Assembly (NCBI GenBank): GCA_964425715.1
Contig: CAYRNO010000003.1
Location: forward strand, 1 to 62,792
DNA: 62,792 nt
Reading direction: 5' to 3'
From: an uncultured Candidatus Saccharibacteria bacterium
GTDB taxonomy: Bacteria > Patescibacteriota > Saccharimonadia > CAILAD01 > BJGX01
The position numbers and the translations under genes were made by a program. The notes under the pieces were generated by a model. The model made no database searches, was not told the origin of the DNA, and saw only the letters and a list, made by a program, of their open reading frames with translations. Shown here in pieces: positions 5,215 through 57,795 of this stretch; position 1 is the first letter of the stretch; each line of letters starts with the position of its first letter.

Positions 5215-6513
5215 TTATTTTACAGAGGCCATCGAATCAAATCCAAGTAGGGGTTTATTGAATGCTGGATGTTTTACGAACTCTAAACTATCATCATTGA
5301 GTTTGTCAAAGAAGTTGCCTGACAGTACGCAGTTGACAGGACCTATAATTTTGCCATTTTCAATATATAGAGCCGAGGGGCAGGGAAGAGAATAATCTCC
5401 AGTAGTCGGATTTTGAGTGTGTATCCCTAGCACTGACAGTATTAGAATAAATCTTGGGTGTGTCGTCAGGTAGTCTTCATAGTCGTTGGTGCCATATTCA
5501 GCGCTACTTAGAGATGACAATACTAGAGGTTTGAGCCCAAGCTTGGAGGCCGTCTGTAAGTCACATATTGGATCGACAAGTCTACCTTTCTCAAGAATGG
5601 TGAATTTTTTACCTACAATACCTTCGGTAGAGAAATTGAAACTATCAGTATCCATTGGCTTAGTTTGATCGACATTTATGTTGATATCGTTTCTTGCTAT
5701 TTGTTTGTCCTTAGCAAAGTCATCAATATCAAACCTAGATACTTTAGACTCCACTAGGGTGCCGTTGATATTTTCTAGTATATATTTATCTAAAATACCA
5801 AATCCAGCATATGGAATGAATAGAACGGGTAAATTGTGGCCAGATAATTTGACCGGCTTTTGTTTTAGATCTTTGGCAAATTGGGCGATTCGATGAGTTT
5901 TGGAAAATTCGCTAATAGGTATAAAATCGCAAGACTCATTGGATGCTGATATTTCAGCATTGTATTCAATGTAGTAGTCATGCGAAGTGTCAACTGATTT
6001 CATATCATTGCCGTTCGAACTTATGAAGCGTTTTTCATTGTATCTAATCGATACCTGAGATTCGATGGATTTTAAGCCAAGTGATTTTTGGTCTTCAAAA
6101 AGCAACTTGGTGTATTCTACTATTTCTTTTGGACTTGATTTAATAATGCTCTCAAGCTTAGAGCTACTTAGCTGTATAGGATTGTAGTTTGATACTTTTG
6201 GAGCAAGCTTGATCTGGTCAGTATATTTAAATGCAGTCTTTTTGATAACATCTGTTGTAGCTTTAAGATCCTCGATTGCATTTGGATTCAAACTACCTTT
6301 TGCCTGCTTATTGTCTTTAGTAGTGATAAGATAGATAATTCTTGAGTGAGTATGGTTTTGAATTGGCTGATAGATACCACCCAAATCCTCGTTATTGAAG
6401 CCAGCCTTGAGTACCGATTGGTTCTCTTCATAAAGTTGAAATTGATCAAATGTTTTGTCTTTGGATAAATGATCTGCAAGCTGGTCTATAGTTGTACTTG
6501 AACGTCTCATCAT
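5215..6513 (-). CDS. pmbA: PmbA/TldE-family metallopeptidase partner
   Basis: 432 aa. Overlaps the upstream tldD by 4 nt. C-terminal GDYSLP...ENGK pattern of the PmbA/TldD fold. Confidence 0.7.
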   Translation of the reverse strand: MMRRSSTTIDQLADHLSKDKTFDQFQLYEENQSVLKAGFNNEDLGGIYQPIQNHTHSRIIYLITTKDNKQAKGSLNPNAIEDLKATTDVIKKTAFKYTDQIKLAPKVSNYNPIQLSSSKLESIIKSSPKEIVEYTKLLFEDQKSLGLKSIESQVSIRYNEKRFISSNGNDMKSVDTSHDYYIEYNAEISASNESCDFIPISEFSKTHRIAQFAKDLKQKPVKLSGHNLPVLFIPYAGFGILDKYILENINGTLVESKVSRFDIDDFAKDKQIARNDININVDQTKPMDTDSFNFSTEGIVGKKFTILEKGRLVDPICDLQTASKLGLKPLVLSSLSSAEYGTNDYEDYLTTHPRFILILSVLGIHTQNPTTGDYSLPCPSALYIENGKIIGPVNCVLSGNFFDKLNDDSLEFVKHPAFNKPLLGFDSMASVK

Positions 6514-8012
6514 ACCACCTTTATTTTATCTGTTGCATTAAAGAACATTAGCTTGTTACCGCCGCTTCTTACATGAGCTGTTTGCTCTGCTTTACCACAA
6601 AAACCAGCGGTGTTTTTTTCTATATCACCGACTCCATATTCTAGTGCCTCTAGAGCTCCTATCACATTTCCAGAAAACGATACAGGCTTTTTAGCCTCTG
6701 CCTTGTCTTTAGTGAGCTCATATACAAAACATGTTCCAAACATAAAGTCTCCTGTTGCTGGTGATACCATACCCCCGGCCATTTCTATCAAATAAATTAT
6801 CTTCGGATGTTTATTAAATATTCCAAGTTCTTTTAAGGCTGACTGAAGTATGTAGGGGTTGTTAAGATTGGAGTCCTTTGGATGGGTTAATTTTTTTATT
6901 TTATTCATAGAAATATATGTATTACTCATACGTGGTATTGCAGGTGAATGGTATGTTTCTGATCTTTCGCAGTTTTTATTTTCCACTCCTATCTTAGATG
7001 AGCTAAACACATCACTGATTGATTCTTTGAGTATTCCTTTATCGATAATAGTAACTGGAAGTCGCGCATTACCAAATGCTCCATAGGGATGGTAGCCATG
7101 AGCTAGATCTTCTTCATGATCCTCAATTGTCACTTCTTTATGGGCTATCTTTTGGCCTGACCTATACTTGGTATCTTGGCCTGCCAAGACGCTACTATTG
7201 GACTCAACGAGATCGGATTCGGCTGGATGACCAAGCGCCTCGTGAGCAAGCATTCCTCCTAAATCAGCATCAATAATGACAGGGAATTGACCAGGTTGCA
7301 TTGCTGGGGCATTCAGCTGCTCCTCTAGCATATTGATAGTAGCAGAAAGTTTGTCATTGTAATTGTCGGTATTTGAAAACAACAATTCTGGAGTAGTATC
7401 TATCATTCGCAATCTCCCGCTCACTGTATTGGATTTTTGCCTGAGAGTCATAGTCATATTGACTCTTGCCTTGGGGACCACCCAGTCGACATCGGTGCCG
7501 TCGCTTCTAATGATTCGCCACATATCTATTTCGACATTAAATCCAAGCAGAGTATTAAGATTTGGTGATTTCTTCTTGGATATCTTATCCAGTTGGGCTA
7601 GATTAGCTGTTATCGACTTTATATCAATATCCGCAATATTATACTCATGATAATGAGATTGATCTTGACCCAAGTTCTTCTGTTTTTGTAGATTATAAAT
7701 TTCTGCTGCGCTGTTGAGATTCTCTTCTTCGTTTTTTGATGCAATGGCCTTTAGATTGTCAAATAACTCGATACATGAATCCTCAGTACAGTTATTGGTA
7801 GACCCAAAAGATACATGACCAGATTTGGTAAATACATACATTCCAATTCCTATATCGCTAACCACGCTAGTTTTGTCAACAGCACCGTTCTTGTATAAAA
7901 GGTTGAAAATTTCATGCTTGTGAATTCGGATTACTGTATAGTATCCCTGCTTTTTTGATCTTTTCAAAACGGTGTCGATAGTACTGTTGAATTCTTGTAA
8001 CAATTTACTCAT
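6510..8012 (-). CDS. tldD: TldD-family metallopeptidase
   Basis: 500 aa. HEALGHPAESD (HExxxH) motif. Confidence 0.85.
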   Translation of the reverse strand: MSKLLQEFNSTIDTVLKRSKKQGYYTVIRIHKHEIFNLLYKNGAVDKTSVVSDIGIGMYVFTKSGHVSFGSTNNCTEDSCIELFDNLKAIASKNEEENLNSAAEIYNLQKQKNLGQDQSHYHEYNIADIDIKSITANLAQLDKISKKKSPNLNTLLGFNVEIDMWRIIRSDGTDVDWVVPKARVNMTMTLRQKSNTVSGRLRMIDTTPELLFSNTDNYNDKLSATINMLEEQLNAPAMQPGQFPVIIDADLGGMLAHEALGHPAESDLVESNSSVLAGQDTKYRSGQKIAHKEVTIEDHEEDLAHGYHPYGAFGNARLPVTIIDKGILKESISDVFSSSKIGVENKNCERSETYHSPAIPRMSNTYISMNKIKKLTHPKDSNLNNPYILQSALKELGIFNKHPKIIYLIEMAGGMVSPATGDFMFGTCFVYELTKDKAEAKKPVSFSGNVIGALEALEYGVGDIEKNTAGFCGKAEQTAHVRSGGNKLMFFNATDKIKVV

Positions 8013-11154: not shown

Positions 11155-13143
11155 ATGGATATTACCGATCTCATCAAGACGATTCTCGAAAAAGGTACCT
11201 ACACCACACTAGACAGACTAGTTGATACAGAGGACTTTCAAGACAGACTGGCAGATAGAGAAAGACTTTTTGGTCTACTTGCTAATTCAGACTCTGATAT
11301 TGCTATAGCTCTCAGGGCTGGACATATTGAAATGTGCGAGCTCTTACACTCAATGCCAGAGTACTTGGCTTTGCAGCAAGCTTCACAAGGCGATATTCCG
11401 GACCCATATATGTATGAGCTTCTGGATGCAGTCGGCAGAGCATTGGTTGAAGTTGCAGGATTCTGCTTGCCAACACCTATACTTCAGGTAGCAGAGCACA
11501 TTGGTGCTCTGGACGCTGATGAGCAGATCAAATGGATCGGCCTAGTCTACGACGGATTTCAATACGCCTATGATGCTGCGAAACAAGTTCCTAAGAAGAA
11601 TAGTTCAGGCGTAGATGTGATCTGGACTATGGATACTGATAGCTTAGGTGAGATAGATATCACACAATCTGATATAGATACTATAGTTGAATACTACACA
11701 CACGCCGGAATGGTAGATCAAGCCAACACAGTGTGTAGAGCTTTGGAATGGCTCTCTGAAGAAGAATTGGATGATCAACCTGATTATTTCGATGAAGCTG
11801 TCAATCTAATCCTGGATTATTATGACAACAAGCATGTTCAAGTCTTTCCCTGGCTATATGACGTAACAGAGCTTGAGTATCCTCTAGAACGAGCCATGCC
11901 GGCTTCATATGGTGTCTTTGGCCAGTCTGGCAATATCCCTACCTGTTTTGGTATGAGTATCATGCTGACGGCTTTCGCAAGAATGACTGGGCTAAAAACC
12001 ATGTTGGTTAGTCCGATTGAGGTCGCCGATGACTTGCACAAAGAAGCTAGAGGAATTGATGCAGTTGCCAAACTAGATCATCTAGATGCAGTTGGTTTTG
12101 AGCGACAGGAATTTAGGGATAAACTCCATGCAGTTGCCAAAGAATCAGCCGACTATCAAGCTAGGATCTACGACTTCCATTACTCCATAGCCATACAGGT
12201 AAGTGATGGACGATGGGTTCATCTTGACCCGTATATGAGGCACTTTGGTGTTTTCGATGACGATTGGGAGCTACAAAGAATATTTGAGATTCTAGAGAAG
12301 TATCAATCGGTACTTCCGGGTCTCAACCTGATCAGCTTTGATGGAGGGTCTTTGAGGCGTCGACTTGTAGAGTTTATCGATGTACTCAAAAAAGCAATCA
12401 ATCAAGCTGAAAGAGTGATGCAGGCTATAATAGAGAAACCATATCCATCTGAAAATATCCTAGAATACTTTGATGATGGTATTGCCTGGCTGAGCTTTGA
12501 TGACACTGGCGATGTGATCTGGCTTACAGATACACTCAATGCACTAGAAGATACAGATGAGCTTTTTTTGAACTATCTCGCCCCATTTGGAGACCAGATT
12601 ACCCCCGAGCACGTAATAAGTCTACGAGAGTATTTTTTCTCCTCACAATTATTGGGAGATCCTCAGATCGATGATCCTGATCAGGAAATATTCAATGAAC
12701 GAATTCAGGCCTATTGGGATCTCTTCTATGATGACGAAGAATTTAAGCGAGATAAGATTGAAAACATTATCTTGCATTTCATCAGAATAGTAATAGAAAG
12801 ATGGAATACTCTCATGGGGGAAATAGAACATACTCTACTAGATCCTGTAATGCAATTCTCTTTGCCAGAGTACAATATAGCTCTTGCTGCAGTAGGTCAT
12901 GCAAGGTGCTGGACAGAAAACGATGTATCTGGTAGAGTATTGCTAACACTGTCATCGTCGCAGTTCTACTGGCACGATGCAGTTGATCTTTCCAGTGGGT
13001 ATGAGCAGAGTGATGCAGATCATTCGGATGCGCTAAGAGCAGAGCAAATGCTTCGCGCACTTCCATTTCTGCATCGTGCTTGTACTAACAAGCTGGAGTA
13101 CCTGTCGCAAATGCGAGAAACACAACCAACCAGGGAGGAATAG
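11155..13143 (+). CDS. large acidic hypothetical protein with a transglutaminase/papain-like Cys-His-Asp arrangement
   Basis: 662 aa. GNIPTCFGMSIMLTAFARMTG (Cys), then FHYSIAIQVSDGRWVHLDPY (His...Asp). SD AGAGGAG precedes the ATG. GC in the low-to-mid 40s by sampling. Confidence 0.6.
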   Translation: MDITDLIKTILEKGTYTTLDRLVDTEDFQDRLADRERLFGLLANSDSDIAIALRAGHIEMCELLHSMPEYLALQQASQGDIPDPYMYELLDAVGRALVEVAGFCLPTPILQVAEHIGALDADEQIKWIGLVYDGFQYAYDAAKQVPKKNSSGVDVIWTMDTDSLGEIDITQSDIDTIVEYYTHAGMVDQANTVCRALEWLSEEELDDQPDYFDEAVNLILDYYDNKHVQVFPWLYDVTELEYPLERAMPASYGVFGQSGNIPTCFGMSIMLTAFARMTGLKTMLVSPIEVADDLHKEARGIDAVAKLDHLDAVGFERQEFRDKLHAVAKESADYQARIYDFHYSIAIQVSDGRWVHLDPYMRHFGVFDDDWELQRIFEILEKYQSVLPGLNLISFDGGSLRRRLVEFIDVLKKAINQAERVMQAIIEKPYPSENILEYFDDGIAWLSFDDTGDVIWLTDTLNALEDTDELFLNYLAPFGDQITPEHVISLREYFFSSQLLGDPQIDDPDQEIFNERIQAYWDLFYDDEEFKRDKIENIILHFIRIVIERWNTLMGEIEHTLLDPVMQFSLPEYNIALAAVGHARCWTENDVSGRVLLTLSSSQFYWHDAVDLSSGYEQSDADHSDALRAEQMLRALPFLHRACTNKLEYLSQMRETQPTREE

Positions 13144-13147
13144 CCTG

Positions 13148-13351
13148 ATGCCCAGGCGTACCCAGAAGGACATGGCAAGAGAGATCCAGGGTCTGCTCGA
13201 CGCCGGCAAGACCCATGCGTGGATCATGGAGCATCACCCGGAGCTCGCCAACGGCTGGAATGAGGTAGCCAAGGGCAAGATTGCCCAGCGACCCCCTCGT
13301 CCACCGGGCACCATCGAGCTTCGTCGCACCGTCACCGCCGACCTTCCCTAG
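13148..13351 (+). CDS. high-GC cassette ORF A (67 aa, basic, Pro-rich tail)
   Basis: ATG at 13148 lies 8 nt after the GGGAGGA SD. About 64% GC by hand count with G/C-rich third positions. Chosen over the longer ORF-track start at 13076, which overlaps the upstream gene. Confidence 0.6.
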   Translation: MPRRTQKDMAREIQGLLDAGKTHAWIMEHHPELANGWNEVAKGKIAQRPPRPPGTIELRRTVTADLP

Positions 13352-13360
13352 GGAAGGTCG
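13339..13360. repeat. 22-nt perfect palindrome centred on CTAG, containing the TAG stop of ORF A
   Basis: cgaccttccCTAGggaaggtcg is self-complementary. The stop codon is 13349-13351. Confidence 0.9.
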
Positions 13361-13366
13361 CAGAGG

Positions 13367-13419
13367 CCTCACGAGCGAGGTAGCAGAGCAGTCTGCTACC
13401 TCGCTTAGTGGGGTTTTTT
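13367..13419 (+). terminator. bipartite hairpin plus T-run (cassette module copy A)
   Basis: CCTCAC-GA-GCGAGGTAGCAG-agcagt-CTGCTACCTCGC-TTA-GTGGGG-TTTTTT. Confidence 0.8.
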
Positions 13420-13435
13420 AATTCGATATCAACAA

Positions 13436-13463
13436 TTGACAAAAAGCAATAATAGTGTATACT
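13436..13463 (+). promoter_or_regulatory. sigma70-like promoter for ORF B
   Basis: TTGACA, 16 nt, TATACT. AT-rich sequence between two GC-rich units. GGGAGAG SD before the ATG at 13498. Confidence 0.55.
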
Positions 13464-13497: not shown

Positions 13498-13860
13498 ATG
13501 AAAACGATCGAGTTCTTGTATAAGACGTGGGCGGGCGTATTGCTGGCCTTGGTCCATACGGGGATCCTGGTCTACTGGGCCCAGCCTGGTGATCACAACA
13601 GCATGTGGGTGAACATCACACTGTCCATCTTCATGTTCCTGCCCATCGCCACGATCATCGTGCTGATCAACCGTGGCGGAATGAGCATGGCCCTCGGCCT
13701 GATCTACGCGTTGAGCTTCTCCATCTTCGTGGTGGGGCTGGCGTACTTCGATCGAGCGCTGCTCACCAGCATATACCTCGGTGTGCTGGCTTCGCTGATG
13801 TGCAACGACGTGATCCGTCATTTCATCGAGGTCGAGCAGCGACATTTCTCCGCGCCCTAG
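13498..13860 (+). CDS. high-GC cassette ORF B (120 aa, 3-4 TM membrane protein)
   Basis: About 56% GC. Roughly five-sixths of third codon positions are G/C by hand count. Hydrophobic segments throughout. Promoter, SD and terminator are all present. Confidence 0.7.
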   Translation: MKTIEFLYKTWAGVLLALVHTGILVYWAQPGDHNSMWVNITLSIFMFLPIATIIVLINRGGMSMALGLIYALSFSIFVVGLAYFDRALLTSIYLGVLASLMCNDVIRHFIEVEQRHFSAP

Positions 13861-13871
13861 GGCAAGCGCGG
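13850..13871. repeat. imperfect palindrome centred on CTAG, containing the TAG stop of ORF B
   Basis: ccgcGCCCTAGGGCaagcgcgg. Perfect 10-nt core GCCCTAGGGC plus outer complementary arms. The stop codon is 13858-13860. Confidence 0.8.
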
Positions 13872-13875
13872 ACCG

Positions 13876-13929
13876 CCTCACGGGCGGGGTGACAGAGAAA
13901 TCTGTCATCCCGCTTAGTGGGGATTTTTT
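13876..13929 (+). terminator. bipartite hairpin plus T-run (cassette module copy B)
   Basis: CCTCAC-GG-GCGGGGTGACAG-agaaat-CTGTCATCCCGC-TTA-GTGGGG-A-TTTTTT. It starts 15 nt after the stop, the same offset as copy A. Confidence 0.8.
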
Positions 13930-13942
13930 ATTTGGCTTAAGA

Positions 13943-14020: not shown

Positions 14021-14473
14021 ATGATGGCAGAAGAAGATACGGTTGAAGTATATAGCCGAAATTGTTTGGTAGCAGTTGTATATGCTCCAGATCACGGCAC
14101 TGCAGTACAGGTTTTTCAGGTTGTTGAATGCGAGGTAATATCTAGCGGCAGCCCAAATACAGTTGTCGAATTTGAATCAGATGTTGAAATCAGAACCCCA
14201 CGAGATTATCTACACGTGGGTCCGATTGGTTCAGAAAACCGTCACATCTGTGTTTATCGAACTGTGGGTGGAGGACATCGAGTAACTTGTGGCTGTTGGA
14301 ACTCCGACAAAGATATAAAAGGCGGTACTATCGATGAGTTCGCCGAGCGCGTAGAGCAAGTTTATGGAGATGATGATGAGGAGCATTTCCAAAACAAGCT
14401 CTATTACGATCAATACATGGCATTTGTCGCTATGGCCAGGTCTCGTATCTCAGAGTGGCAACAAGAAGCATGA
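14021..14473 (+). CDS. hypothetical cytoplasmic protein (150 aa, acidic, Cys/His-containing)
   Basis: AAGGAAG SD. HRVTCGCWN segment. No family recognised. Confidence 0.6.
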   Translation: MMAEEDTVEVYSRNCLVAVVYAPDHGTAVQVFQVVECEVISSGSPNTVVEFESDVEIRTPRDYLHVGPIGSENRHICVYRTVGGGHRVTCGCWNSDKDIKGGTIDEFAERVEQVYGDDDEEHFQNKLYYDQYMAFVAMARSRISEWQQEA

Positions 14474-15997: not shown

Positions 15998-16018
15998 AAA
16001 TATAGAAAGTCAACTCAG

Positions 16019-16047
16019 AAAAACTTCCACAAATGTGGGAGTTTTTC
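16019..16047 (+). terminator. intrinsic terminator
   Basis: aaaaCTTCCAC-aaat-GTGGGAGttttt. Confidence 0.75.
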
Positions 16048-16134
16048 TTATGCTTATTTAATTTTATAAATATTCGTTGTACAATGTGTTAAATAGTGTT
16101 CAATAAATAGTAATTAAAAAGGAGTTTTATAAAA

Positions 16135-17995: not shown

Positions 17996-18008
17996 ATACA
18001 ATGCGAAA

Positions 18009-18049
18009 GGCCCCATAGAACCTCTCGTAGTGAGAGGCCCTATGAGGCC
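18009..18049 (-). terminator. bipartite hairpin (cassette module copy C)
   Basis: Minus strand reads GGCCTCATAG-GG-CCTCTC-actac-GAGAGG-TTC-CTATGGGGCC, then CTTTCG (weak U-tract). Confidence 0.6.
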
Positions 18050-18055
18050 AGAGTG

Positions 18056-18069
18056 AAGGACTAGTCCTT
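18056..18069. repeat. 14-nt perfect palindrome centred on CTAG, containing the TAG stop of ORF C
   Basis: aaggaCTAGtcctt. The minus-strand stop is at 18063-18061. Confidence 0.85.
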
Positions 18070-18438
18070 GTAGTGATCGACGATGCGGTTGAGGTCGGCG
18101 ACCATCTGCTCGCCGATAATCCCAGACTCCACACCCTGAAGGTATGGGATCGAGTCCGGGTCGGACATGATCTTGGTGAGCTGCTTCACGCTCAGCGGAG
18201 GATCGAAGCACTCCCAGTAGCCGTAGGGGACCAGAGCTGAGAGCTGACGACCCACCTTGGCCAGCACCCTGGGCTTGTTCTGGTATACCTCACCGCGTGC
18301 AACGCGGGTGATGGAGTGCAGAGCCCTGCTCAGCGGGTTGGAGTGACAGACCACCACTTGCTTGCTACGCAGCTCACTCAGAAGCGAGACGGTGAGCAGT
18401 ACCGGCGGTGGCTTGAGTGGTTCCTTCTTTTTGCCCAT
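18061..18438 (-). CDS. high-GC cassette ORF C (125 aa)
   Basis: About 59% GC by hand count with G/C-rich third positions. ATG at 18438 is preceded by an AAGGAA SD. The ORF-track TTG start at 18486 is judged less likely. Confidence 0.6.
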   Translation of the reverse strand: MGKKKEPLKPPPVLLTVSLLSELRSKQVVVCHSNPLSRALHSITRVARGEVYQNKPRVLAKVGRQLSALVPYGYWECFDPPLSVKQLTKIMSDPDSIPYLQGVESGIIGEQMVADLNRIVDHYKD

Positions 18439-18527
18439 GTACTCATTCCTTTCGTAGATAGCACAGGTGGACTTATTAAACCACAATAGTATAAATATAA
18501 CAATATATTATATGATAATATGAGAGT

Positions 18528-18989
18528 ATGTTGATAAGACAAGCCACAATTAATGAACTAAAAGTAGTTCAAGATCTCAATTACAAGCTGTTTGTGCATG
18601 ATTATGGTTATGACCCAGTACTAGATGTTGATTGGCCATATAGCAAAGAAGGTGAAGAATACTTTACTGATAAAGTTAGTGGAAAATCAGGTATTTGTTT
18701 TATTGCTTTAGAAGATGACAAGTTAGTCGGCTATATAGCAGGTAGTATGATGAAGCCAGATTCAACTCGATCAGTTTCGGTTGCTAGCCTAGACAACATG
18801 CTGGTTGAAGAAGAGTACAGAGGTAATGGTATTGGAACTTCACTCCTTGAACATTTCAAAAAGTGGGCAAAGGCAAAAGGAGCAGGAAGTGTTGAAGTGA
18901 GTGCCTATTTCAATAACAAAAAAGCTATTCGGTTTTATCAAAGCGTAGGCTTCAAAAAACTTGCCATAAATCTAGAGAAGAAGATTTAG
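18528..18989 (+). CDS. GNAT-family N-acetyltransferase
   Basis: 153 aa. EEEYRGNGIGTSLL acetyl-CoA binding motif. Confidence 0.85.
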   Translation: MLIRQATINELKVVQDLNYKLFVHDYGYDPVLDVDWPYSKEGEEYFTDKVSGKSGICFIALEDDKLVGYIAGSMMKPDSTRSVSVASLDNMLVEEEYRGNGIGTSLLEHFKKWAKAKGAGSVEVSAYFNNKKAIRFYQSVGFKKLAINLEKKI

Positions 18990-19634: not shown

Positions 19635-19664
19635 ATTATAACGAACAGTATGCGAACATGTCAA
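19635..19664 (-). promoter_or_regulatory. lexA promoter with candidate SOS operator in the spacer
   Basis: Minus strand reads TTGACA-tGTTCgcatactGTTCgt-TATAAT. Consensus -35 and -10 with an 18-nt spacer. Direct repeat GTTC-N7-GTTC (plus strand GAAC at 19643-19646 and 19654-19657). GGAGG SD before the ATG. Confidence 0.65.
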
Positions 19665-20182: not shown

Positions 20183-20258
20183 GGGCCTGTAGCTCAGTGG
20201 TTAGAGCAGTCGGCTCATAACCGATTGGTCGTAGGTTCAATTCCTACCAGGCCCACCA
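20183..20258 (+). tRNA. tRNA with CAU anticodon (elongator Met or Ile2/lysidine), CCA encoded
   Basis: Hand-folded cloverleaf. Acceptor GGGCCTG/CAGGCCC, anticodon loop CTCATAA, T-loop GGTTCAATTCC. Confidence 0.85.
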
Positions 20259-24563: not shown

Positions 24564-24638
24564 CGCGGGGTAGAGCAGTGGCAGCTCGTCAGGCTCATAA
24601 CCTGGAGGTCGTAGGTTCGAATCCTACCCCCGCTACCA
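24564..24638 (+). tRNA. initiator tRNA-fMet (CAU), CCA encoded
   Basis: CGCGGGG 5-prime end with a C1 x U72 mismatch. Anticodon loop CTCATAA. T-loop GGTTCGAATCC. Confidence 0.8.
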
Positions 24639-28559: not shown

Positions 28560-28636
28560 GGCTGCGTAGCTCAGTCGGTTAGAGCGCAGGACTCATAAGC
28601 CTGAGGTCGTAGGTTCGATCCCTACCGCAGCCACCA
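28560..28636 (+). tRNA. tRNA with CAU anticodon (elongator Met or Ile2), CCA encoded
   Basis: Acceptor GGCTGCG/CGCAGCC, anticodon loop CTCATAA, T-loop GGTTCGATCCC. Confidence 0.85.
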
Positions 28637-46435: not shown

Positions 46436-46470
46436 AAGCAAAAACCTCACTTTGTGGGGTTTTTGCTTTG
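46436..46470 (+). terminator. intrinsic terminator using a CCTCAC/GTGGGG stem
   Basis: AAAGCAAAAACCTCAC-ttt-GTGGGGTTTTTGCTTT. Confidence 0.8.
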
Positions 46471-46681: not shown

Positions 46682-48166
46682 ATGAAGAGAAAGTGGCAGA
46701 TTATATTGGCGTCAGCAGGATTTCTGATCGGGATAATATTTGCAGCTAATTATGTAGTACGTGTTGTTTATCTAATTTTTATATGTCTTATATTAGCTTC
46801 TGTTGTTAGTTTGTTCGTAGTAAAGAGTAAGCTTGGATATATATTGCTTATCATAATTGGATTGCTTATGGGGATAGCAAGATTCGAATTCTATATCGAT
46901 ACAGTATTGCCAAGTGCTCAAAAGTTTGATGGTCAAAAAGTAAGTGTGGTCGGAAGAGTTAGTGGCGAACCAAGATGGGATGAATATCGCAATTACGTAT
47001 TTTATATGAGTGATGCAAGTATAGACCAAGCTCGTGTTGATGGTCTAGTCAGGATAAAGACTATGGCAGGGAATGTAAGAGAAGGCCAGGTAGTAAAAGC
47101 AACTGGAAAAATCAAAAACGGACAAGGTAAAGCCGATACTTATATTAGTTTTGCACAAGTTGATATTCTAAATAGCTCTCAACCACTAAATGTCCAAATT
47201 AAACAAATATTTATACAGGGACTACACAACACTCTGCCAGATGATTCTGTAGCATTTATGTCAGGGATACTTATAGGCTCTAGGAGCGCCTTGCCAAAAT
47301 CCTATACTGATATTTTATTGGCACTTGGTTTGAGTCATATAGTAGCTGTGTCTGGTTACAATCTTACAGTACTCATAGGTTTTTTGAATCGAAGACTATC
47401 TAAGAATTGGCGCTGGGGAGGGCTGATGGCATCTCTTTGGATCATACTTGGGTTTGTAATAATATCCGGTGCAAGTGCCTCAATACTTCGCGCGGGGATT
47501 ATGAGTTCGATATTCTTGATTGCAATTTACTACGGCAGAAGATTGAATCTGGTAGTTTGCTTATCAATAACTGCAGTTGCAATGATTGCTTTGCAGCCAC
47601 AGAGTTTGTTGAGCGACATGGGCTGGCAACTATCATTTTTGTCTCTGTTTGGTATTACCATTCTTGCGCCAAGAATTTCAAGAATTCTTCCATCCAAGCC
47701 AAGGTTGCTCAACGATATACTCGCCGTGACACTATCAGCACAAATAGCTACTGCTGGACTTGTCATCTATAAGTTTGGTCAAATAAGTCTTTTGGCTCCA
47801 CTAAGTAATCTAGTAGTGATTCCACTTGTACCAACTTTAATGCTTCTGGGTATATTGGCTGCTTTTGTGGGGATTGTATTGCCTCAGTTTGCTTTTATAT
47901 ACTTCGGAAGATTTATACACTATGTTTTTACGTTGCTGTTTGATTTCTTGGCCTATCTGTCCAATTGGCAAATATCTGTATATAAATTCAACAGTGTTAA
48001 GCTAACTACGGTAATAGTGTATTATGCATGTGTTTGTATATTTGCTCTTATGGTTCGGTCCAAGTCCGAATACTCGTTTATAGCTACAAATCATGATAAA
48101 ATTAATCGAGAAAATAATACTTTAGATAATGTGACTAGGAAAGGAGAATTAGGTGTCAGGACATAG
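46682..48166 (+). CDS. comEC: ComEC/Rec2 DNA internalisation channel (no beta-lactamase-like domain)
   Basis: 494 aa. N-terminal OB/DUF4131-like region plus the competence domain (LGLSHIVAVSGYNLTVL). Confidence 0.8.
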   Translation: MKRKWQIILASAGFLIGIIFAANYVVRVVYLIFICLILASVVSLFVVKSKLGYILLIIIGLLMGIARFEFYIDTVLPSAQKFDGQKVSVVGRVSGEPRWDEYRNYVFYMSDASIDQARVDGLVRIKTMAGNVREGQVVKATGKIKNGQGKADTYISFAQVDILNSSQPLNVQIKQIFIQGLHNTLPDDSVAFMSGILIGSRSALPKSYTDILLALGLSHIVAVSGYNLTVLIGFLNRRLSKNWRWGGLMASLWIILGFVIISGASASILRAGIMSSIFLIAIYYGRRLNLVVCLSITAVAMIALQPQSLLSDMGWQLSFLSLFGITILAPRISRILPSKPRLLNDILAVTLSAQIATAGLVIYKFGQISLLAPLSNLVVIPLVPTLMLLGILAAFVGIVLPQFAFIYFGRFIHYVFTLLFDFLAYLSNWQISVYKFNSVKLTTVIVYYACVCIFALMVRSKSEYSFIATNHDKINRENNTLDNVTRKGELGVRT

Positions 48167-56277: not shown

Positions 56278-57795
56278 ATGCCAACCATATTTTTTATAGT
56301 AGCCATACTAGGTGCTGGAGCACTTGGGTATGGTGGTAGTGTTGTTATTAGCAAACAAAAAAACAAAGACAACAAAGCTGCCTCTGACAAGATATTAGAA
56401 GAAGCCAAAGTAAAATCAAAAGAACAAATCCTGCAGGCCAAAGAAGAAGCACTGAAGATACTAAATGAAGCAAAAGATGAAGACAAGAAAAGACGTGAGA
56501 GATTAGACGGTCAAGAAAAAAGATCTCTGGAACGAGAGAAATTACTAGACAGCAAACTCGAAACAGTTGAGCGAAGAGCAGAAGCATTGCAAAATGATGA
56601 AAAAGAAATAGAAGCTATCAAACAAGAGCTTCGAGATATTCGAACTAGACAGGAAAAGAATTTAGAGAAGATAGCAAAGCTCAAGAAGCAAGATGCCATA
56701 GATAAACTAATGGCTATGACCGAAAAAGAAATCAAAGCAGATTTAGTAGAGTATGTAGAAAAGCTCAAACGTGATGCCAAAGAAAATGCCGATGAGGATT
56801 CCAAAGAGATTATGGCCGAAGCGATGGAGCGTATGGCTACTAGCCAAGCTACTGAGCGAACAATTACAACTGTTGCTATTCCAAACGATGAAGCCAAAGG
56901 CAAAATCATCGGTAAGGAAGGTCGTAATATACAAGCCTTCGAAAGACTCACGGGGGTAGATGTACTCATTGATGAAAGTCCGGGTGTAATTACTTTGTCA
57001 GGATTTGACCCGGTGCGCCGTCAGGTGGCTCGTGTTGCGATGGAGCAACTAGTCAAAGACGGACGCATACACCCCGGTAGAATTGAAGAGATAGTATCCA
57101 AATCTCAAAAAGAAATAGATCAAGAGATAAAAAAAGCCGGTGAAGATGCAGCTCGTGAAGCCAAGGTATTTGGTTTGCCACCAGAGATCAACAAACTCAT
57201 GGGTCAATTAAAGTTTAGAACTTCTTTCTCACAAAATGTCTTACATCACTCAGTAGAAATGGCTCATCTTGCCGCAATGATTGCTGAGCAGATTGGTGCT
57301 GATGTAAAGGTGACTCGTACCGCGGCTTATCTACATGATCTTGGTAAGGCAGTTAGCCATGAAACAGAAGGTAAGCATCACCATATCACTGGAGATATAA
57401 TGCGAAAAGAAGGTTTTGATGAAGCTACCGCACATGCTGCTGAAGCACATCATGATGACATCGAAGCCACAACTGCCGAGGCTCTCATTGTCCGAGCAGT
57501 AGATGCACTAAGCGCCGGTAGACCTGGGGCACGGGGAGATAGTGCCGAAAACTTCGGAAAGCGCATGACTGATCTGGAGAACGTTACCAAGTCATTCCCT
57601 GGTGTAGAAAAAGTCTATGCAATGAGCGCTGGTCGTGAGATAAGGGTATTTGTAAACCCAGAAAATATTGATGATCTTACTGCCATCAAGTTAGCACGTG
57701 ATGTTGCTACCAAGATAGAAGCTACACTAAAATATCCGGGTACTATCAAGGTTAATGTGATCCGAGAGACTCGTGCAGTGGAGTTTGCAAAATAA
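56278..57795 (+). CDS. rny: ribonuclease Y
   Basis: 505 aa. N-terminal TM, coiled coil, KH domain (GKIIGKEGRNIQ) and HD domain (LHDLGKA). Confidence 0.93.
   Translation: MPTIFFIVAILGAGALGYGGSVVISKQKNKDNKAASDKILEEAKVKSKEQILQAKEEALKILNEAKDEDKKRRERLDGQEKRSLEREKLLDSKLETVERRAEALQNDEKEIEAIKQELRDIRTRQEKNLEKIAKLKKQDAIDKLMAMTEKEIKADLVEYVEKLKRDAKENADEDSKEIMAEAMERMATSQATERTITTVAIPNDEAKGKIIGKEGRNIQAFERLTGVDVLIDESPGVITLSGFDPVRRQVARVAMEQLVKDGRIHPGRIEEIVSKSQKEIDQEIKKAGEDAAREAKVFGLPPEINKLMGQLKFRTSFSQNVLHHSVEMAHLAAMIAEQIGADVKVTRTAAYLHDLGKAVSHETEGKHHHITGDIMRKEGFDEATAHAAEAHHDDIEATTAEALIVRAVDALSAGRPGARGDSAENFGKRMTDLENVTKSFPGVEKVYAMSAGREIRVFVNPENIDDLTAIKLARDVATKIEATLKYPGTIKVNVIRETRAVEFAK

Follow-up and report, generated by a model that had tools for sequence, protein, structure and literature searches.

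ORF C as a probable self-contained accessory transcription unit at a variable heliorhodopsin locus of a Candidatus Saccharibacteria genome

The DNA analysed here, referred to below as the window, is a 62.8-kb stretch with a GC content of 39.6% from an uncultured Candidatus Saccharibacteria bacterium (contig CAYRNO010000003.1, positions 1 to 62,792). Only three sharp GC-rich islands stand out in it, at positions 13081–13440, 13501–13940 and 18001–18440. The third island holds the open reading frame (ORF) that is the main subject of this analysis, ORF C, and the other two correspond to ORFs A and B. The original prediction for this locus regarded ORF C as a third, inverted copy of a cassette architecture shared with ORFs A and B, with the B and C copies bracketing a block that carries a heliorhodopsin (HeR) gene. 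Our analysis makes it probable that ORF C is instead a self-contained accessory transcription unit, and that the A, B and C units vary one at a time rather than as parts of one HeR element.

ORF C and its probable transcription unit

The features of ORF C and its immediate surroundings are as follows.

18061–18438, minus strand: ORF C, 125 aa from ATG, a lysine-rich N-terminus followed by a helical domain (from the ORF list)
18446–18451, minus strand: Shine-Dalgarno sequence of ORF C, AAGGAA, 7 nt ahead of the ATG in an AT-rich upstream stretch
18474–18503, minus strand: predicted promoter of ORF C, -35 TTGTTA, 17-nt spacer, TG-extended -10 TTTAAT
18056–18069, minus strand: palindrome aaggaCTAGtcctt, enclosing the TAG stop codon of ORF C (plus-strand CTA, 18061–18063)
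18009–18049, minus strand: C-type hairpin, a putative terminator of 41 nt with an 18-bp stem and a 5-nt loop, followed by CUUUCG
18528–18989, plus strand: GNAT acetyltransferase gene (Pfam Acetyltransf_1, E 8e-21), the companion of C between lexA and p196

The description of ORF C as a minus-strand gene of 125 aa with about 59% GC, an AT-rich upstream region and an AAGGAA Shine-Dalgarno sequence can be read directly from the DNA. The GC content of the gene is 0.593, and the values at the first, second and third codon positions (GC1, GC2 and GC3) are 0.62, 0.37 and 0.79 (GC3 is about 0.78 in the comparison of the gene with its neighbours), as against 0.51, 0.35 and 0.34 for 29 long ORFs of the window and a genome GC3 of about 0.35. 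Substitutions in ORF C cluster in third codon positions. Taken as a unit, C would comprise a sigma-70-type promoter, a short leader with the ribosome-binding site, the 125-aa gene and a long GC-rich hairpin at which transcription most likely stops.

The predicted promoter layout, consisting of the -35 TTG, the TG-extended TTTAAT and the CGAAAGGA leader, is common to all 10 aligned members of the C family. The bases TTG and T..T..AATA are invariant in 10/10 C-family promoters (alignment A3), which come from differing genomic contexts, and the CGAAAGGA motif around the ribosome-binding site of ORF C is kept in the relatives of the same 10-member alignment. The neighbouring lexA promoter (19635–19664, minus strand) has perfect hexamers, TTGACA and TATAAT, separated by 18 nt, and its spacer carries TGTTCG as a direct repeat (TGTTCG...TGTTCG), possibly the LexA operator of this lineage. 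SOS regulation of C was considered and rejected, as this repeat is without counterpart in the C promoter.

Downstream of the gene, the hairpin reads, from 18049 down to 18009, GGCCTCATAGGGCCTCTC-ACTAC-GAGAGGTTCTATGGGGCC. The region 18000–18075 folds with an energy of -37.3 kcal/mol (z = -7.2), and the hairpin itself is more stable on the sense than on the antisense strand (-32.8 versus -23.5 kcal/mol). The distance from the stop codon to the GGCC of the hairpin is 11 nt, not the 13 nt originally given. Related loci, designated by L numbers, were fetched from metagenomes with the window proteins as queries. A T-rich tail, TTTT(T), follows the C hairpin in L007, L017 and L135, whereas the window copy has just CTTTCG. 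L135, whose protein has about 34% identity, retains the hairpin, GGGGCCTTTCG included, and there the TAG within the 5' arm is the stop codon itself. As first noted, the TAG of ORF C lies inside the palindrome aaggaCTAGtcctt. This palindrome is also present in L001 and L002, is replaced by another stem of the same geometry in L017 and is absent in L007 and L138. Stems of at least 5 bp surround the stop codon in 8 of 70 window ORFs, C included. A special role of the palindrome as a signal of C was therefore discarded, its 5-bp stem being within the chance range and not conserved.

The C protein belongs to a family restricted to Patescibacteria, with just 6 clusters in a set of 5.8 billion proteins. 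Another 7, weaker matches came from a profile search over 1.8 billion representatives, and the 6 of these that were examined (P0014 was left out) are proteins of 133–165 aa with a lysine-rich N-terminus. Neither C nor A or B has a sequence match in Pfam, PDB, PHROG, PADLOC or NCBIfam. A first structure model of C was poor, with a predicted local distance difference test score (pLDDT) of 47; with a 12-sequence alignment the score rose to 80 and the model was all helical, with no fold match in PDB or BFVD. In the genome collection, a single metagenome-assembled genome, a river-water Patescibacteria bin, carries C, and contigs that share one C protein are identical in their DNA. Other members of the family occur in unrelated contexts (L014, L135 and L137), and a 1-kb contig with 51% GC, L013, holds two tandem C-family paralogues (298–726 and 741–1013). 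In L012 (LexA 87% identical), a syntenic C homologue has an ordinary composition (GC3 0.31), a plain terminator and the same promoter layout, and this locus is without HeR. The original prediction had set its reading against the case of a conserved core gene. ORF C is absent in L055 and in most relatives at 75–90% LexA identity, and it is an accessory rather than a core gene, moving as promoter, gene and terminator together.

Variation of the locus among relatives

ORFs A and B would be two more units of broadly similar construction, located like C in this variable part of the freshwater Patescibacteria genome. Their features are the following.

13148–13351, plus strand: ORF A, 67 aa, GC3 0.76, beginning 4 nt past the p662 stop codon
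13340–13419, plus strand: A 3' module, with an 8-bp hairpin that has the TAG in its loop, a 48-nt bulged hairpin at 13366–13413 and T6 at 13414–13419 (from the fold, direct repeat D1 and covariation)
13436–13463, plus strand: predicted promoter of ORF B, TTGACA, 16-nt spacer, TATACT, an 11/12 consensus match
13498–13860, plus strand: ORF B, 120 aa, GC3 0.84
13850–13929, plus strand: B 3' module, with a CCGCGC/GCGCGG stem around the TAG, a 48-nt bulged hairpin at 13875–13922 and T6 at 13924–13929

ORF A is always paired with p662 (L001, L017 and L138–L141). Its ribosome-binding site lies inside the end of p662 (13143–13148), and GC3 rises across the p662/ORF A junction, from 0.39 to 0.76 in the window, in each relative carrying the pair. 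The promoter of ORF B is conserved in L001, L002, L017 and L055. By eye, the B protein has four hydrophobic, putatively membrane-spanning stretches. ORF B is absent in L138 and L141, and in L002 (8191–8546) it is frameshifted into parts of 69 and 49 aa, which may reflect a pseudogene or an assembly error. Read-through of the TAG of A and B was rejected, as the in-frame extension past the TAG that can be read from the sequence is not conserved in L001. In the GC islands gene callers pick long antisense ORFs (6402–6788 and 8821–9093 in L017; 13462–13908 in the window), and thus B and C are mis-annotated in the public gene calls of some relatives.

The gene content of the most informative related loci is given below.

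L055 (LexA 99% and HeR 98% identical): DsbD-B-p150-HeR-p57-p132-p138-p240-p196-lexA; without C, the companion gene and p662-A
L138: p662-A, p150-HeR and following genes, C and a deoxyribosyltransferase-like gene; without B
L002: HeR, C and a deoxyribosyltransferase-like gene; without p662-A
L017 (LexA 98% identical): p661-A-B-p132-p240-p196-C-lexA; without p150, HeR and p57
L141: A followed directly by p57-p132; without B, p150 and HeR

Among close relatives p662-A, B, p150-HeR, p57, p138, C, and the GNAT or deoxyribosyltransferase-like gene occur in many combinations. In the genus of the window, C sits between the convergent lexA and p196 genes. These two genes are back to back in most relatives (eight or so) at 81–90% LexA identity, and in L055 their stop codons are 9 nt apart, so that C and its companion gene would fill an otherwise nearly empty gap. 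The companion itself varies. It is the GNAT gene in the window and a nucleoside 2-deoxyribosyltransferase-like gene in the same slot in L001, L002, L007 and L138; L012 and L017 have C with no companion, and GNAT is likewise absent in L055. In the window and L002 the companion gene overlaps the lexA stop codon by 4 nt. Just upstream of HeR, p150 (14021–14473) matches phrog_20532 (E 6e-14) and evolves fast, being 76% identical in L002 and L055, where HeR is 98–99% identical.

This pattern bears directly on the proposal of a mobile element that carries the HeR block and has the B and C modules as its inverted ends. B (plus strand) and C (minus strand) do face each other across 13.9–18.0 kb, as originally described, and their hairpins have the GCCTCA..TGGGG stem base in common. 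They face each other because each is transcribed toward its own terminator, not because they are the ends of one element. HeR is found without C (L055), without B (L138) and without A (L002 and L055), and A, B and C are found together without HeR in L017. The HeR indel spans approximately 13.93–15.52 kb and has its right edge between p57 and p132, about 2.5 kb from the C hairpin, and C with its hairpin is older than the block, standing beside lexA in L012, which has no HeR. Beyond the 6–7 nt of the stem base, no inverted repeat links the B and C ends; a Pfam scan of 30 window ORFs revealed no transposase or integrase, the called genes of the relatives' loci include no integrase, and comparison of the empty site in L055 with filled sites revealed no target-site duplication. 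On the test that the original prediction itself proposed, a HeR unit bounded by hairpins or inverted repeats is thus refuted by the comparison of the loci, in which the indels are independent and have other breakpoints (L055, L138, L002, L017 and L141), and we regard it as extremely improbable. The fallback offered alongside it, repeated insertion of cassettes into one permissive locus, has fared better: the units vary one by one among relatives, and accumulation of cassettes in a permissive locus therefore fits. In freshwater bacteria of the candidate phyla radiation, heliorhodopsins occur predominantly in Saccharimonadia (PMC9166423). The present comparison disposes of an attractive but mistaken notion, that hairpin-ended mobile elements carry heliorhodopsin in these bacteria, and it shows a strain-variable region of an ultra-small genome assembled from single-gene units.

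The units would be gained, lost and exchanged singly among related strains, probably by homologous recombination. The genome closest to the window is L002 (HeR 98.8%, LexA 98.6% and DsbD 97.5% identical). C of the window is nevertheless 75% identical to that of L002 and 84% identical to that of the more distant L001 (HeR 93.7%). When the window is compared with L001, the flanking genes prove to be nearly saturated at synonymous sites. Identical codons exceed the level expected at saturation by 0.11–0.31 in p662, p196, HeR and LexA and by 0.50–0.60 in A, B and C. The proteins of A, B and C even so evolve faster, the ratio of nonsynonymous to synonymous substitution rates being 0.23–0.67 for A, B and C and no more than 0.10 for the flanks. 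In L138, A continues at its 3' end into a hairpin and a downstream flank corresponding to the hairpin and flank of B in the window, the T tract excepted. The switch from A to B lies inside GCCTCAC(G), where the directly repeated hairpins of A and B have their base, which suggests that recombination between these two hairpins removed or introduced B. Read as a crossover within a cassette site, this is a single case, equally explained by recombination between the 58-nt repeats in which the hairpins lie. Since ComEC is encoded in the window (46682–48166), DNA uptake followed by homologous replacement is a plausible route of exchange.

The 3' hairpins as conserved structures

The hairpins that follow A and B and those that follow C were aligned separately.

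A/B hairpin type: 8 copies in five genomes, 21 pairs, 97.6% of cells paired, 9 pairs changed on both sides
C hairpin type: 7 copies, 18 pairs, 96% of cells paired, 3 pairs changed on both sides

None of 500 shuffles was as good as the A/B alignment, for which slid controls gave 42–47% paired cells; slid positions of the C alignment gave 31–64%. In the L001 copy of A, the inner stem has a wholly different sequence and an unchanged shape. Most A/B copies have a bulged A, and all have the T6 tail. G.U pairs are frequent, and in 7/9 copies the sense fold is better than the antisense fold by 5–11 kcal/mol. The hairpins stand 11–16 nt past the stop codon in all copies. No Rfam family matches the islands or hairpins: a scan at gathering thresholds yielded 7 tRNAs only, and a permissive RNA-family scan over 12.9–18.7 kb yielded sub-threshold noise only. 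One such match, to ctRNA_p42d (27.5 bits versus a gathering score of 50), falls on the p132 terminator hairpin at 16017–16053 and probably reflects hairpin resemblance.

The compensatory changes, the sense-strand bias and the T6 tracts of A and B argue for a role in termination. A T tract directly follows the GC-rich stem-loop in A and B, the position is 3' on the sense strand in all copies, and on these sequence features the best interpretation of the hairpins is that of intrinsic terminators which move together with their genes.

The build of the three ends is similar, each having a small stem at the TAG and then a long hairpin, with T6 behind it in A and B. Between A and B the hairpins are genuinely homologous and lie within a 58-nt direct repeat that is 79% identical. 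The C hairpin shares with them just 6–7 nt of the stem base, and in its sequence it belongs with the C gene family rather than with the A/B hairpin family. The window holds 3 instances of the motif GCCTCAY..RTGGGG, where 0.11 would be expected, and these lie exactly at the A, B and C hairpins, and to this extent the reuse of one outer stem in all three was correctly observed. The motif is short, however, and its looser form is not enriched in the window (14 matches versus 7.7 +/- 3.7). The same stem, CCTCAC/GTGGGG, with the T.G wobble of the A/B outer stem, closes the bidirectional tRNA-Lys terminator at 46445–46459, CCTCACTTTGTGGGG, which has T5 on both strands. The wobble is likewise common to A, B and C in the window, but the position is C-G, U-A or U.G in relatives of C. 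With only the stem base shared, and with a tRNA-Lys terminator that has the same stem, C is built like A and B and is not a third copy of their 3' element; the likeness of the ends holds for the two-part build, while the C hairpin is of another family and its stop stem is within the chance range. Full hairpin modules were not found elsewhere, the motifs being unrepeated in the remainder of the 62.8 kb and the motif hits in IMG/VR being chance matches without the full hairpin.

Several observations weigh against the account of A, B and C as self-contained units with simple terminators. The window copy of C has only CUUUCG after the hairpin, a weak U tract. The stems, at 18–21 bp, and the architecture, including the bulged A of most A/B copies, are kept beyond the needs of termination, and the hairpins may have a further role. 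ORF A has no promoter of its own and is coupled to p662. Finally, a GC3 of 0.73–0.94 is held by A, B and C alone in genomes at approximately 0.35, for which ordinary gene turnover gives no explanation.

GC-richness of A, B and C and comparison with known systems

The GC3 values of the units and of their neighbours in the same genomes are listed below.

Window, A/B/C: GC3 0.76/0.84/0.78; neighbours 0.28–0.43
L001, A/B/C: GC3 0.84/0.94/0.76; neighbours 0.42
L017, A/B/C: GC3 0.73/0.78/0.74; neighbours 0.37
L014, C family: GC3 0.69; neighbours 0.45
L135, C family: GC3 0.65; neighbours 0.47
L137, C family: GC3 0.79; neighbours 0.56
L012, C family: GC3 0.31; neighbours 0.32

A, B and C are GC-rich in every genome having them. 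The window and L017 copies of B and C have reached synonymous saturation, yet both retain a GC3 of 0.74–0.84. Among third-position singletons of C, 23 changes from G/C to A/T (S>W) stand against 10 in the opposite direction (W>S). From these counts, decay of GC3 in C would be under way, with an implied equilibrium of about 0.6, far above the genome. Translational selection or codon adaptation was rejected as the cause, since highly expressed genes have AT-ending codons (GC3 is 0.35 in DnaK and 0.32 in enolase). Structured mRNA was likewise set aside: the whole-transcript z of about -3.8 is largely due to the terminator hairpins, and without these the coding regions are not clearly more folded than shuffles. 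A phage origin of A, B and C found no tblastn match in 50,697 phage records and none in IMG/VR, and no GC-rich donor emerged from the protein, phage or viral-contig searches.

One explanation would be a recent acquisition of A, B and C from a high-GC donor, such as an actinobacterial host or its phage, without time as yet for drift to the local composition. The contrast in GC3 (0.76–0.84 against approximately 0.35), with boundaries that are sharp at the coding sequences, the presence of ComEC and the excess of G/C-to-A/T singletons in C, which indicates some decay, are consistent with such an origin. We nevertheless consider it unlikely: no search returned a homologue outside AT-rich Patescibacteria contigs, a syntenic low-GC homologue of C with the same promoter layout is present in L012, the saturated copies of B and C have remained GC-rich, and the promoters and leaders are native-like and AT-rich. 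A tentative possibility, doubtful in its turn though less so than import, is that selection, or a bias linked to recombination, maintains the high GC content, for instance through a stable hairpin-capped mRNA resistant to RNase Y, which is encoded at 56278–57795, or through rare codons that throttle costly proteins. GC3 is indeed stationary across lineages with near-saturated flanks, it exceeds that of the neighbours in 6/8 lineages of the C family despite their differing genome GC, and the AT-ending codons of highly expressed genes (GC3 0.32–0.35) imply that GC-rich codons are not the preferred set. Folding of the coding regions, on the other hand, does not clearly exceed that of shuffles once the terminator hairpin is left aside, the L012 copy functions at a GC3 of 0.31, and S>W changes outnumber W>S changes. 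The lasting GC-richness of the three orphan cassettes is thus a real, unexplained oddity, to be attributed either to repeated re-import from an unseen GC-rich pool or to selection for GC-rich messages.

That three orphan genes hold a GC3 near 0.8 in a genome near 0.35, across near-saturation divergences and with no donor in sight, is the point of wider interest here. If selection on mRNA composition, or recurrent exchange via structured 3' ends, is the true cause, the finding would bear on the control of base composition and gene flow in reduced, naturally competent genomes.

The combination of a small ORF with a structured site also invites comparison with integrons, and the hairpins could be the recombination sites of integron-like cassettes whose recombinase is encoded elsewhere. 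As in integron cassettes, a small ORF is followed by an imperfect, usually bulged palindrome that is conserved in structure over sequence, A and B stand in tandem in one orientation and have directly repeated sites, and L138 shows a cassette-sized indel, the absence of B, with its junction inside GCCTCAC at the palindrome base. The attC core consensus is RYYYAAC for R'' and GTTRRRY for R'. The GCCTCAC/GTGGGGT ends of A and B differ from attC cores by one compensated base pair, each matching the consensus at 6/7 positions and so falling short of it, and C has GCCTCAT../..ATGGGGC. No integrase was found among the 30 window ORFs scanned or the called genes of the relatives' loci. B and C have their own promoters (TTGACA-16-TATACT for B), and C is inverted and carries the other hairpin family. 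T tracts come after the hairpins, the G.U pairs fit a sense-strand RNA, the hairpin motifs are unrepeated in the 62.8 kb, and no full modules were found in the viral contigs of IMG/VR. The 8-nt identity at the L138 junction also allows deletion via ordinary recombination or slippage. The integron-like reading is accordingly very unlikely. Only slightly less improbable is an undescribed cassette system of Patescibacteria, in which the small, self-expressed genes would be kept GC-rich by selection and their long two-tier 3' hairpins would serve both as terminators and as sites of cassette swapping between related genomes, without an integron integrase.

The preferred reading, of accessory transcription units that vary singly, finds its closest likeness in phage morons, which are autonomous transcription units inserted between other genes (Cumby, Davidson and Maxwell 2012, PMC3594210). 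The likeness lies in a promoter of their own (B and C), one small gene, a factor-independent terminator, an odd composition, and presence or absence at the same intergenic spot. Unlike morons, the present units stand in a cellular chromosome among lexA, DsbD and trehalase genes and not in a prophage, phage relatives are confined to p150, the unusual composition is retained from species to species, and A is coupled to the upstream gene. Compared with ordinary intrinsic terminators, the hairpins are alike in being GC-rich stem-loops 11–16 nt past the stop, with T6 in A and B and with G.U tolerated on the sense strand only, and the tRNA-Lys terminator of this genome is closed by the same stem. 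They differ in being two-tiered, with stems of 18–21 bp and usually a bulged A, and in the small second hairpin, often with the stop codon in its loop. With flexible genomic islands the locus shares a fixed site between conserved genes, at which small membrane or secreted genes vary by addition, loss and allele replacement, whereas the three units here are set apart by a GC3 near 0.8 and structured 3' modules. By analogy, the A, B and C units would work most like phage morons, in a setting like that of a flexible genomic island.

Two minor features of the window complete the description. GATC occurs at 14 sites in genes A, B and C together versus 3.4 expected, a four-fold excess (P = 0.016 versus synonymous-codon shuffles), and at 0.99 of expectation in the remainder of the window. 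Three tRNA-Met (CAT) genes lie within 8.5 kb, at 20183–20258, 24564–24638 and 28560–28636.

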